This document shows positions 6,842 through 48,910 of a DNA stretch of 64,000 bases, piece by piece (within the stretch, counting starts at the first letter, position 1; each line of letters begins with the position of its first letter). The translations under genes and the position numbers were made by a program. The notes under the pieces are model-generated. The model searched no databases. It was not told the origin of the DNA and saw nothing but the letters and a program-made list of their open reading frames with translations. This DNA is from Acidimicrobiia bacterium. Lineage in GTDB: Bacteria > Actinomycetota > Acidimicrobiia > Spongiisociales > ZC4RG35. Location: assembly GCA_965203555.1 (NCBI GenBank), contig CBDBCY010000004.1, positions 1,376,001 to 1,440,000 of the forward strand, given 5' to 3'.

Positions 6842-7036
6842 TTGCCGTTTGTCCCACTGGTGCTCCATAGTGACTGATAGCCGAAACTCCCACGGCCCGA
6901 TACGGCGTCGCTCGGGCACAGGGATCATATTGCCGAAACGCCCCTTCCCAAGGGATCGGTCAAACGCGTCTCGGCCCAAGGGGGTGGTGGTGGGAGTTGG
7001 GCCCAATGAAGAAACCGACAGCAAACGTTTTTCGCG
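6842..7036 (+). ncRNA. Dispersed promoter plus structured-RNA element, copy D
   Basis: TGTCCC-N10-CATAGT; hairpin GCCCG/CGGGC with CGGCGTCG loop; GGGATCATA; stem GCCGAAACGC/GCGTCTCGGC; GGTGGTGG...GGGCCC tail; TTTCGCG. Confidence 0.6.
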
Positions 7037-7144
7037 GGTTAGCGTGCGAGAGCCACGGGGAGGACGGTCAGCAACGCTTGTTACCCGGTAAGAGTCCTAG
7101 CCTTGCATTCATCCTACGGGAAACAATCGAGAGGAGCGCCGGAG

Positions 7145-7558
7145 ATGCACCACTGGAACGAATGGAACCAACAGGTCATCAAGGAATTCCGAACCAAGGG
7201 AGGAAGAGCGGAGGGAATGCTGAAGGGAATGCCCCTGTTGCTGTTGCATCACATTGGCGCCAAGACGCAAACCAGGCGCATAAGTCCGCTCGTGTACCTG
7301 GCAGTCGCAGGGGGCTATGCCATTTTTGCCTCGAAGGGGGGACATCCCACCAACCCCGACTGGTATCACAACCTGCTCTCCAACCCCGAGACCGAGGTGG
7401 AGGTCGGTGAGGAGACTGTCCCGGTGCGGGCCCGGATAACGGAGGGAGCGGAGCGGGAGCGGATCTGGACCAGGCAAAAAGAGCTCTATACCAACTTCGC
7501 CGACTACGAAGCGAAAACCTCCCGCCAGATTCCAGTCATAGTGCTCGACCGGATCTGA
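7145..7558 (+). CDS. F420-dependent Ddn-like nitroreductase family protein
   Basis: PLLLLHHIGAKT, FASKGG.PTNP.WYHNL and RQIPVIVL motifs. Confidence 0.9.
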   Translation: MHHWNEWNQQVIKEFRTKGGRAEGMLKGMPLLLLHHIGAKTQTRRISPLVYLAVAGGYAIFASKGGHPTNPDWYHNLLSNPETEVEVGEETVPVRARITEGAERERIWTRQKELYTNFADYEAKTSRQIPVIVLDRI

Positions 7559-7656
7559 AGCCCCGCCGGGACCCCCTCCCGCGCGGCGCCGATTCTCCCT
7601 TCTTGCAACTCTCTAGCCTTATCTCTTAGAAGCACCACAGAAAGGAACAGAACAGG

Positions 7657-8070
7657 ATGCGCGACTACAACGCGTGGAACAAGGAAGTGATCGAGGAATT
7701 CCGGGCGAATGGCGGATGGGCCGGAGGGATGCTGAAGGGAATGCCGCTTCTGCTGCTGTACAACCTCGGCGCCAGGACCGGCGCCCTGCGGATCAACCCG
7801 CTCGCCTACCAGAAGGTGGAGGGCGGCTATGCCATTTTCGGCTCCAAGGGCGGTTCTCCCACCAATCCCGCCTGGTATCACAACCTGATGGCCAACCCCC
7901 AGGTCAAGGTGGAGCTCGGCACGGAGAGCTTCATGGTCAGAGCCCGTCTGACGGAAGGTGAAGAGCGGGAGCGGATCTGGACCCAACAGAAGATCGACTT
8001 CCCACAGTTCGCCGAGTACGAAACCAAGACCTCCCGCCAGATCCCGGTGATCGTGCTCGAACCCATCTAG
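7657..8070 (+). CDS. F420-dependent Ddn-like nitroreductase family protein, tandem paralog
   Basis: Same motifs; closely similar to 7145-7558. Confidence 0.9.
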   Translation: MRDYNAWNKEVIEEFRANGGWAGGMLKGMPLLLLYNLGARTGALRINPLAYQKVEGGYAIFGSKGGSPTNPAWYHNLMANPQVKVELGTESFMVRARLTEGEERERIWTQQKIDFPQFAEYETKTSRQIPVIVLEPI

Positions 8071-8107
8071 GTCCGGTTTCCCTGGAGAACTGCGAAGAGG
8101 TCGCCTG

Positions 8108-46922: not shown

Positions 46923-46955
46923 TCGCTCGTTATGAGTTGCATCCGGGGCAGAAAC

Positions 46956-47756
46956 CTAACCCGGATCGCCTCTCTTCCGCCTGAGAAAGGCCACCAACCC
47001 AGCAGTCATGACCAGGCCTCCTGCGAGCAGCAGGACTCGGGTCATGGTGGATACGGCGCCCTTCAGGCTGGAAACCTCGGTTTGGAGAGAGATCGCCTCT
47101 TCTTCAAGACTTGACACTTCTCCCTGCAGACTTACCATCTCATCCTCCTGTCTCAGGTCATCCGGCAGGAGGTCTTCAATGTTTGCCCCCGGTTCCTCCA
47201 CCTCCTCCTCCATACCCTCCGCCTCCTCCTGCAAAGCCAACGCCTCATCAGGCGGATAGCCCTCGCCGAACACTTCCTTGAGTTCACCGATTGTGACCAC
47301 AGACCCACACAGACTCACCATATATTCATCCCCTCCCCTGCTGAAGGCAGCAACCCCTTTGACTCCCTTTTCGGCAAAGTCGACGCCGCAGGACGACCCG
47401 TCTCGCACTGTTTGGACCTCGATCACCGGACCTGCCCGCCCCTTGTACACCCGAGTGACCCCAAAGATCAGAGTAACTGGATCACTGGACCAGGTTGATC
47501 CGTCCGATTCTGAGATTATCCGCTGGATTTGCCAGCCCGTGAAGGCAACATCCACCTCGTCGGCGTAGTCGGACAGAGGGACATCCGCACAACTGCAGGC
47601 ATGAGCCGGTCGGGGAGTTGCCAGGACAGTGATGCCCACCAGGGCCGCCACCAGCATCGATGCGGCCATCACCCTTGCCAATCCACCCCTTCCACTGCTT
47701 CTTTGGACACCGGAGCTTTGATCCACGAGAACTTCCAGGACGCTTGACAGCACCAT
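46956..47756 (-). CDS. Membrane-anchored TIMP/NTR-like protein with short coiled coil
   Basis: Signal peptide ending AHA then CSC; F.V.RVYKG, SSCGVDF and VSLC; heptad repeat; C-terminal TM and basic tail; start uncertain. Confidence 0.65.
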   Translation of the reverse strand: MVLSSVLEVLVDQSSGVQRSSGRGGLARVMAASMLVAALVGITVLATPRPAHACSCADVPLSDYADEVDVAFTGWQIQRIISESDGSTWSSDPVTLIFGVTRVYKGRAGPVIEVQTVRDGSSCGVDFAEKGVKGVAAFSRGGDEYMVSLCGSVVTIGELKEVFGEGYPPDEALALQEEAEGMEEEVEEPGANIEDLLPDDLRQEDEMVSLQGEVSSLEEEAISLQTEVSSLKGAVSTMTRVLLLAGGLVMTAGLVAFLRRKRGDPG

Positions 47757-47902
47757 AACACATCCGCTTCATGATTGATTCCCGATCCCTACCGGAACAA
47801 CTCCTGCTGATCCCGGAGAGCTCAGGACGCTCTTTCAAAGTTCGCTCTGAGTCCGTAAGGCGTTTCCAGGCGATGGCTGGCCGGCAGCGCTCCCTGCCAC
47901 CT

Positions 47903-48520
47903 TCACCCGGCTGATCTGTCGCTCTTCTTTTTCAGAAAGGCCGTCGCTCCACCCACCAGGATCGCTACGGCTGCCGAGACCGACAGGGTTTGGATCACAG
48001 TCCGCTCACTATCCCGCGGACCCGGCCCTTCCACCTCCCCAGCCACGGCTTCTGTCTCCCCAACCACCGGATGACCTTCGCCGAAGACCTCTTCCAACTC
48101 ATCCAAGGCGACGGGTGATGAACAGATGTCCACCGTCAGGCCTTGCCGACCTGCATCGAAGAAGGCGACCATCCCCCTGACGCCTCTTCCTGAGAGATCG
48201 ACGCCGCAGTCACCGCCTCCCAAGCCCGTGCCGACCGAGATCCGAGGGCCGGACCGGCCCTTGTAGACCCGATCAACCTGAAACACCAGGGTGGCTCCGT
48301 GGTCCCCGACGCTTCGAGCCAGTTGACGTCCCGCGAACGCAAGGGACACCTCATCGGCGTACTCCGACAACGGGCCAGGCAGGCAACTGCACGCGTGAGC
48401 GGCTCGGGGAGCCGAGATCAGCAGGGCGCAAACCATGGCGGCGGCAAGCAGCACAGCCTCCGACCTCCGCAACACACCGGAGAATGGCACCGACCGGCGT
48501 TTCTTGAGGTCTCGAAGCAT
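47903..48520 (-). CDS. Membrane-anchored TIMP/NTR-like protein, paralog
   Basis: AHA then CSC; FQVDRVYKG, GDCGVD and VDIC; C-terminal TM and KKK. Confidence 0.65.
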   Translation of the reverse strand: MLRDLKKRRSVPFSGVLRRSEAVLLAAAMVCALLISAPRAAHACSCLPGPLSEYADEVSLAFAGRQLARSVGDHGATLVFQVDRVYKGRSGPRISVGTGLGGGDCGVDLSGRGVRGMVAFFDAGRQGLTVDICSSPVALDELEEVFGEGHPVVGETEAVAGEVEGPGPRDSERTVIQTLSVSAAVAILVGGATAFLKKKSDRSAG

Positions 48521-48676
48521 GGGGTCCCCGGCGAGCGTCTACCGCGAGTCTAAAATCAACCCCCCGCCCGGACCCCGGGTTTGGCCGCGATGCCGGACCT
48601 TCGCCATCCAGCCACGCCGGCGCCTTGCCGGATTTCCCTACGTCGCCCATTCACTCAGACCGCCGCCCCACTCCTT

Positions 48677-48910
48677 AATTCTGGGAAACCCACCCGACCC
48701 GCCACCGCCCATCCAGCGTCCAAATTCGGACAGGGCGCGACCTGCCCGACCGGAATCCGGTTGGCAAACCGCCTCTTGGAGGCTGACGCCACCCTCAGGC
48801 GGATGGATGATCATCCGGGGCCCGGAACACCGGAGTGATATTTGGACTCTTCCAGCATGTGACGCCGGTGGGACATTTTCAAGATCTCACCACGGAGATA
48901 TTTCCCACGC
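48677..48910 (-). ncRNA. Dispersed promoter plus structured-RNA element, divergent copy E
   Basis: On the minus strand: TGTCCC-N10-CATGCT; TCCGG/CCGGA hairpin; GATCA; GGCGGTGGCGGG...CCCAGAATT matching the copy A tail. Confidence 0.45.

Follow-up and report, generated by a model that had tools for sequence, protein, structure and literature searches.

In Actinobacteria, the principal programme against DNA damage is the PafBC response, and the RecA-NDp promoters associated with it have, in mycobacteria, the consensus TTGTCRGTG-N8-TANNNT. REP13E12-type HNH repeats have long been known, but, to our knowledge, their biology is unexplained. Here, we analyze a 64,000-nucleotide stretch of DNA (the window) from an Acidimicrobiia bacterium (assembly GCA_965203555.1, contig CBDBCY010000004.1, positions 1,376,001–1,440,000; the 3.42-Mb genome is referred to as G000), in which a first-pass annotation had proposed five homologous intergenic elements, each combining a damage-type promoter with a two-hairpin RNA. 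These elements are named c1 to c5, in window order. Judged from sequence, the cassettes are a real, large, and uncatalogued family with a predicted promoter, a predicted structured RNA, and mobile-like dynamics. We put the probability at roughly 0.55 that they are dispersed, damage-inducible, structured non-coding RNA cassettes, related to an RNA gene that is built into HNH selfish-gene units.

According to the available part of PMC8223512, RecA-NDp is found beyond mycobacteria, in other Actinobacteria, with recA under both LexA and RecA-NDp control, and the available part of PMC3381160 states that 13E12 genes contain RecA-NDp and are induced by DNA damage. According to the corresponding part of PMC6789036 (2019), no small RNA of mycobacteria had by then been implicated in the damage response. 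An RNA of the kind described here does not appear in the accessible text of the literature on DUF222-HNH/REP13E12 genes, RecA-NDp/PafBC, and small RNAs (including these three papers, PMC10589994, and PMC7029489, all without supplements).

The cassette family and its putative promoter

Re-reading of the coordinates showed that all five elements had been placed correctly, and alignments showed the proposed order of motifs across the elements. The claim of five homologous copies held in part. The elements c1–c4 belong to one family and are matched over their full length by the covariance model R1 (22.5–99.2 bits), whereas c5 gives no R1 match at E ≤ 1 and belongs to a separate family, here called type C. 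The copies are real, but five is an undercount, as a profile made from eight copies gave 39 nhmmer matches in G000 at E ≤ 1e-3, 31 of them full length. Nearly all lie on the main contig, and the copies occupy intergenic gaps.

R1 is based on 16 copies, taken from other genomes except for one G000 copy from outside the window, with hand-placed helices P0, Pa, P1, P1b, P2, P3, and P5. It matched 96 of 100 fetched loci over their full length, and a crude pattern was present in all 16 other genomes of the genus (this tally and that for the c3 locus given below took in two unpublished genomes, G038 and G027, on which no claim rests). Copy numbers obtained with R1 in five complete or near-complete congeners were 21, 16, 42, 21, and 84. 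A genome from another family of the same order (G033) has 34 copies, which retain a TTGTCACA-type promoter and a TTTTCGCG box; G021 gave one weak match, and G019, G022, and G018 gave no R1 match. The model found no copies in a class-wide sample of 150 genomes, which does not prove absence, since the filters were strict and no more than 19 candidates were scored in each genome. A looser pattern, run across genome contigs, returned chance matches in high-GC genomes and no relative. The first-pass statement that the RNA matches no recognized family was borne out in Rfam 15: at the gathering threshold, the sole match in the whole window was PYLIS_3, located elsewhere, and searches of five loci at E ≤ 5 gave sub-threshold chance matches, the best over a cassette being MIMT1_1 on the G-rich tract (22.3 bits, compared with a threshold of 45).

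The whole cassette is approximately 330 bp long. Its anatomy was derived from an alignment of 104 copies from seven genomes (31 from G000 and 73 from six congeners). For the relatives, copies were chosen solely on the basis of the tail and the stem-1 loop, which makes the promoter and TTTCGCG counts independent of the selection. The unit starts with an A-tract containing a CGYGAAA or TGTGAAA box, which is usually followed by a TTGACT-like hexamer. The putative promoter consists of a −26 element, TGTCNC, and, after 10 or 11 nucleotides, a −10 element, CAYAYT, with the stem-1 loop 27–35 nucleotides further on. The motif TGTCNC-N10/11-xAxxxT was found at this fixed distance before the P1 loop in 88 of the 104 copies (TGTCAC in 42 copies, TGTCCC in 35, TGTCTC in 7, and TGTCGC in 4). 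Of the 88 copies in which the promoter was located, 47 have the short inverted boxes (CGYGAAA/TGTGAAA) upstream, and at least one TTTCGCG follows within 130 nucleotides of the G-rich tract in 88 of 102 copies.

In the window, the c1 promoter spans positions 6842–6871 on the plus strand (TTGCCG, 6842–6847; −26 element TGTCCC, 6850–6855; −10 element CATAGT, 6866–6871). It is followed by the predicted RNA body at 6878–7014 (48.7 bits with R1), in which a CCC closes the G-rich tract at 7004, and by a TTTCGCG box at 7030–7036. The upstream region of c2, also on the plus strand (16000–16052), contains the A-tract box TGTGAAAAAA (16000–16009), TTGATT (16024–16029), CGTCCC (16031–16036), and the −10 element CACACT (16047–16052); the predicted RNA body, which has the lowest R1 score (16055–16206; 22.5 bits, E = 0.0014), is followed by a TTTCGCG box at 16215–16221. 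Both c3 and c4 are on the minus strand. The promoter region of c3 (20503–20560) has a GTTGTGAAAAAA box, TTTATT (20531–20526), TGTCCC (20524–20519), and the −10 element CATATT (20508–20503), and its predicted RNA body (20350–20493; 53.3 bits), with the G-rich tract at 20381–20360, has no TTTCGCG downstream. In c4, the promoter region (43968–44023) comprises TCGCGAAAAAAA (44023–44012), TTGAAA (43997–43992), CGTCAC (43990–43985), and the −10 element CATGTT (43973–43968). The predicted RNA body of c4 (43799–43966) scores highest (99.2 bits) and has the extra hairpin P1b and an 11-bp P2 stem; two TTTCGCG boxes follow, at 43783–43777 and 43762–43756. Three copies (c1, c2, and c4) thus carry the box, as had been noted at first pass.

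Reading the upstream motif as a damage-type promoter, as was done in the first-pass annotation, is supported at the level of sequence, as the same layout precedes recA and the DUF222-HNH genes of this genome. The region upstream of recA (G000:C4:820630–820800, minus strand) contains a LexA-type box, TCGAACACATGTTCG, and, nearer to the gene, TTGTCACAG-N8-TAGCTT. In mycobacteria, recA is under dual LexA and RecA-NDp control, and the G000 region carries both elements. All 24 upstream regions of DUF222-HNH genes examined in G000 have TTGTCACA-N8/9-(C/T)ATA(C/A)T immediately 5′ of the start codon. On contig C4, 28 of the 49 intergenic matches to a strict version of the motif are cassettes or HNH genes. 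The same contig carries pafA, the Pup ligase gene (C4:2616824–2618080), followed by two WYL-domain genes that we read, from position and domain, as those for PafB and PafC. A cassette copy is located 52 bp before the open reading frame (ORF) that holds pafA (G000:C4:2616413–2619732), and its place in front of this operon represents a possible feedback arrangement.

The window also contains two orphan GTTTTTCGCGA boxes, 51 nucleotides apart (11350 and 11401, minus strand), in the divergent intergenic region 11289–11593, without an RNA module. This box may serve on its own as a binding site for a protein.

Pairing in the predicted RNA

The predicted RNA is approximately 140–170 nucleotides long and, according to the model, has two domains. 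Domain 1 consists of the 5′ helix P0, an internal loop with conserved AAAC and UCAUA, helix Pa, the hairpin P1, which is conserved and has the loop CCGRCGUCG, and the optional, variable hairpin P1b. Domain 2 is a long variable stem, P2, capped by the hairpin P3, which has a CNGGC(U) loop. The domains are followed, on the 3′ side, by an unpaired G-rich tract, GGUGGNGGCGGGGGNGGG, a hairpin of 3 to 4 bp, and one or two TTTCGCG boxes. The modelled fold has more hairpins than the two originally proposed. The letters given for those two stems were nevertheless right: stem 1 is GGTCCG/CGGACC in c3, GGTCCG/CGGGCC in c4, GCCCG/CGGGC in c1, and GTTC/GAAC in c2, and stem 2 is GTCGACACGCG/CGCGTGTCGAC in c4, GCCGAAACGC/GCGTCTCGGC in c1 (with one A-C), AGGCCG/CGGCCT in c3, and GGGTC../..GACCC in c2.

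The compensatory stem changes claimed at first pass were seen in alignment A5, where 81.6% of the cells pair, compared with 69.1% in shuffles and 27–52% with slid partners; A5 was fitted to the model, so that these values lean towards the modelled structure. In the same alignment, two-sided changes occur in 35 of 37 pairs and in 386 cells (139 in shuffles), and none of 500 shuffles reached any of these measures. In a plain MAFFT alignment, one stem-1 pair is UA (15), UG (7), or CG (5). RNAalifold, applied to plain MAFFT alignments, recovered stem 1 and a GGG/CCC pairing alone, and its folds for sub-clusters were inconsistent because the G-rich tract pairs promiscuously. An alignment-free shuffle test of domain 2 gave a mean z score for the minimum free energy (MFE) of −1.43, with 30 of 95 values below −2 and 8 of 95 above 0. 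G-U pairs exceed A-C oppositions in helices P0 (66 vs. 34), P1 (28 vs. 9), and P5 (34 vs. 18). We consider the evidence for selected pairing, in RNA or single-stranded DNA and on either strand, to be real but moderate. Inspection by eye revealed no conserved ORF, in line with the first-pass annotation; a small ORF across the tail, considered in the same way, showed no conserved start and was rejected.

Turnover, HNH genes, and competing explanations

Comparison of orthologous loci, which had been suggested at first pass, revealed empty sites at the c3 locus and absences at the c4 locus. G000, G008, and G004 carry the element at the c3 locus, and five genomes (G007, G001, G016, G002, and G015) have an empty site there. 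Four further congeners have other, unrelated inserts in this gap; G013 and G014 share one of approximately 600 bp with small ORFs, and those of G010 and G003 differ. The c3 intergenic gap is an insertion hotspot. At the c4 locus, G000 and G007 carry the element in the same orientation, G003 has it inverted, and G008 and G004 lack it. The c1 element and the gene downstream of it, which encodes an F420H2-dependent quinone reductase (7145–7558), are jointly missing in G008, with 84 bp left between the flanking genes (window 6745–7657). Such turnover is the behavior of mobile or rapidly turning-over DNA. The alternative offered in the first-pass annotation, a non-autonomous mobile element, gains support from the locus polymorphism, the orientation switches, the 16–84 copies per genome, and the patchy spread.

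The window contains one DUF222-HNH gene of the REP13E12 type (14735–15983 with its promoter, gene 14757–15983, plus strand; PF02720, 1.7e-27; PF01844, 8.4e-07). It has its own TGTCACACC-N-CATGCT promoter right before the start codon, and its 3′ end is 15 nucleotides from the c2 cassette. G000 has 27 paralogous loci, 24 of which span at least 337 of the 408 residues. Near these genes lies the type C family, which has 9–11 copies and is related to, yet separate from, the c1–c4 family, with which c5 shares the promoter layout and a G-rich tail. Of the nine type C copies found at E < 1e-30, seven converge on the 3′ end of an HNH gene at a distance of no more than 150 bp, and in one HNH subfamily the repeat unit includes the type C RNA gene. 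Element c5 (48638–48904, minus strand) is an orphan member, with TTGAAA (48882–48877), TGTCCC (48875–48870), CATGCT (48859–48854), and a G-rich tail (48714–48683); it scores 185.7 bits with the nhmmer type C profile, of which it is itself one of the four seeds. It is located in a 2-kb stretch (46921–48936) with two ORFs (46956–47756 and 47903–48520, both on the minus strand) that have no Pfam or NCBIfam match, and this stretch has no DNA counterpart among five congeners.

In the reading that we prefer, namely damage-inducible RNA cassettes related to the RNA gene of HNH units, PafBC, activated by DNA damage, would fire the cassette promoter, which would yield the non-coding RNA of approximately 140–170 nucleotides. 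The solo cassettes would be proliferated non-autonomous relatives of the type C RNA gene, and they would spread as DNA, because the promoter and flanks travel with the RNA part. As for function, our preferred guess is that the RNA, once induced by damage, modulates either the HNH elements or the damage response. Such an RNA could act via its constant loops and the G-rich tract, as a platform that binds proteins or C-rich RNA or that forms a G-quadruplex.

A number of observations, in addition to the fitting of A5 to the model, weigh against this reading. With regard to structure, G-U and A-C are equal when all pairs are counted (204 vs. 200), A-C being commoner in Pa and P2. In the seed alignment, which comprises 16 close copies and was not fitted to the model, there is too little variation to reveal covariation, and 47 to 278 of 500 shuffles reach the observed values. 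The MFE z scores of the whole RNA, calculated for the sense strand of six copies, range from −0.50 to +1.48 and are no better than shuffles, and the antisense strand folds equally well or better (−3.38 in one copy). With regard to transcription, a generic sigma-70 scan found no promoter at c3 or c4, which fits an activator-dependent promoter but also means that the putative promoter is recognized solely by its likeness to the motifs of recA and the HNH genes. A scan for intrinsic terminators found none at c3 or c4. In three metatranscriptome runs and one DNA run, RNA-library contigs cover some genes and the HNH 5′ region, and none covers c1–c3. One metatranscriptome contig (X4, 182 nucleotides, three differences) spans the HNH promoter and 5′ end (window 14668–14842), where DNA carry-over is possible. 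A 262-nucleotide contig (X5, depth 3) matches the c2 tail region over 57 nucleotides and continues through a TTTCGCG box; it probably stems from a relative's copy, and we draw no conclusion from it because here, too, DNA carry-over is possible. With regard to mobility, the sequences that flank filled and empty sites have diverged too far for clean ends or a target-site duplication to be defined. With regard to the link to HNH genes, HNH numbers do not track cassette numbers in the five congeners (4, 2 [broken], 5, 11, and 5 HNH genes vs. 21, 16, 42, 21, and 84 cassettes). In G004, which has 16 cassettes, all HNH copies are broken. The adjacency of HNH genes and cassettes was not replicated in five other genomes, where approximately 1 of 27 HNH genes has a cassette within 500 bp.

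The rival that survives best, which we regard as doubtful but worth serious consideration, is a dispersed repeat acting at the DNA level, similar to miniature inverted-repeat transposable elements (MITEs) or repetitive extragenic palindromes. The hairpins and boxes would then serve a recombinase, a transposase, or a DNA-binding protein, and a transcript, if made, would be incidental. The differences in presence and orientation between orthologous loci speak for such a repeat, as do the 16–84 copies within one genus, the many copies at contig ends of fragmented assemblies, the near-identical subfamily copies across several genomes, and the patchy distribution (none in the 150 class-wide genomes, compared with 34 copies in G033). 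The inverted boxes upstream (47/88) and TTTCGCG downstream (88/102), the overall equality of G-U and A-C, and the antisense strand's folding at least equally well point in the same direction. However, one type of promoter-like motif is kept at a fixed distance and in a fixed orientation in 88 of 104 copies and in the distant G033, and a pure DNA repeat needs none. Moreover, the fold consists of several local helices with constant loops rather than one long terminal-inverted-repeat hairpin, G-U exceeds A-C two- to threefold in P0, P1, and P5, and neither a transposase-like partner nor a target-site duplication was found. Type C, which one HNH subfamily carries within its repeat unit, could be regarded as the autonomous relative, yet R1 does not match type C, and HNH genes are not known transposases.

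The cassettes and type C could instead form the RNA component of DUF222-HNH selfish elements, with a damage-induced RNA that binds, restrains, or directs the nuclease and with solo copies as non-autonomous offshoots exploiting the same machinery; this we think improbable. In a more specific version, which we hold to be slightly less probable still, the RNA would be a dedicated partner of the nuclease, either an antidote (antisense or protein-binding) or a directing cofactor, and the solo copies would be MITE-like derivatives. The convergence of seven of the nine type C copies on HNH 3′ ends and the promoter type common to RNA and HNH genes are as expected for such a partner, and in G000, an HNH gene is found within 250 bp of 4 of the 31 solo copies and of one partial copy. 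This adjacency is the one that was not replicated in the five other genomes, and G004 keeps its 16 cassettes with broken HNH copies only. The HNH domain is weakly IscB-like (E = 0.0038 against PDB 9nvu_P; 22.6 bits with NCBIfam guided_IscB), but this score falls far short of the 175-bit cut-off, and the similarity is confined to approximately 55 residues, with the HNH motif only. In the RNA, variability falls in paired stems and not in free guide loops. The idea of a guide RNA was rejected, as the variable parts of nine type C copies gave chance-level matches of 16–23 nucleotides elsewhere and none beyond chance in their own flanks (E ≈ 0.2).

The cassette could also be a portable promoter plus leader that puts neighboring genes under damage control, the folded part being a 5′ untranslated region. 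According to crude, ORF-based gene calls for the 31 G000 copies, 16 are codirectional with the gene that follows, 13 converge with it, and 2 are ambiguous. The codirectional copies, those located 52 bp before the ORF of pafA (which precedes the two WYL-domain genes) and 488 bp before an mfd-like gene, two copies that precede HNH genes, and the lack of a detected terminator at c3 and c4 would suit a leader. Apart from the mfd-like gene, the ten downstream genes inspected are mostly metabolic and mutually unrelated (aminotransferase, AMP-binding enzyme, phosphotriesterase, amidohydrolase, and aldehyde dehydrogenase), and the downstream HNH genes own a copy of the promoter. The convergent neighbors and unrelated downstream genes argue against a dedicated leader or riboswitch. 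We rejected a cis-leader on these grounds and give this rival little credence. A T-box or other riboswitch, suggested by a GGUGG motif, was dropped, given that Rfam is silent and 13 copies face convergent genes.

Elsewhere in the window, the PYLIS_3 match (mttB pyrrolysine insertion sequence; 38879–38978, minus strand, 60.2 bits) lies within an uninterrupted ORF of 516 residues (38475–40025, minus strand), which looks like an MttB-type gene without an in-frame stop at the PYLIS_3 site.

Significance and comparison with known systems

If the preferred reading of damage-inducible RNA cassettes is true, the 16–84 promoter-matched RNA genes per genome would be the most numerous class of PafBC targets in these organisms, and the PafBC damage response would be linked to REP13E12-type HNH repeats. 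If, instead, the RNA is a partner of the HNH nuclease, REP13E12-type repeats would gain an RNA partner and the PafBC response an RNA arm. Small RNA screens often leave out repeat regions, so that such RNAs could be missed elsewhere; the available part of PMC7029489, for example, states that REP13E12 intergenic regions were excluded from the screen. Should the cassettes be a DNA-level repeat, they would still be a new dispersed family that scatters damage-type promoters genome-wide.

Like the Correia elements of Neisseria, ERIC, and BOX, the cassettes are non-coding, occur in dozens of intergenic copies of 150–350 bp, are polymorphic for presence and absence, have a predicted RNA structure, and could drive or read into neighboring genes. 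Correia, ERIC, and BOX elements are characterized by target duplications and terminal inverted repeats, and the similarity between copies extends over the full length. In the cassettes, by contrast, no such ends were found, a hypervariable middle keeps pairing, and there is one regulon-specific promoter.

The combination of type C and HNH genes resembles HEARO/omega RNA of IscB, the reRNA of TnpB, and the bridge RNA of IS110, in that a structured RNA of 150–250 nucleotides is linked to a small mobile nuclease gene. Unlike in those systems, the HNH protein lacks RuvC (22.6 vs. 175 bits), the orientation is convergent, and most copies are solo; compared with HEARO/omega RNA, there is no guide-like segment that matches the flanks and no Rfam HEARO match. 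Type C also recalls the type I toxin–antitoxin pairs RatA/TxpA and SR4/BsrG, as it points at the 3′ end of a potentially harmful nuclease gene that has the same class of promoter. The likeness lies in the gene layout, and, in contrast to those pairs, solo cassettes of types A and B have no partner gene.

The RecA-NDp/PafBC promoters share with the cassettes a TGTC-type element approximately 16 nucleotides before the start of a weak −10 element, found at recA (together with a LexA box) and at DUF222-HNH genes. The cassette motif differs from the mycobacterial consensus in letters 5–9. As in the RecA-NDp/PafBC system and the REP13E12 repeats of Mycobacterium tuberculosis, pafA and two WYL-domain genes are present, and recA and 13E12-type genes are paired in the same way (available parts of PMC8223512 and PMC3381160). 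Compared with RecA-NDp, the cassettes mostly add a TTGACT-like hexamer just upstream, and, unlike in either of these systems, the promoter leads into a predicted structured non-coding RNA.

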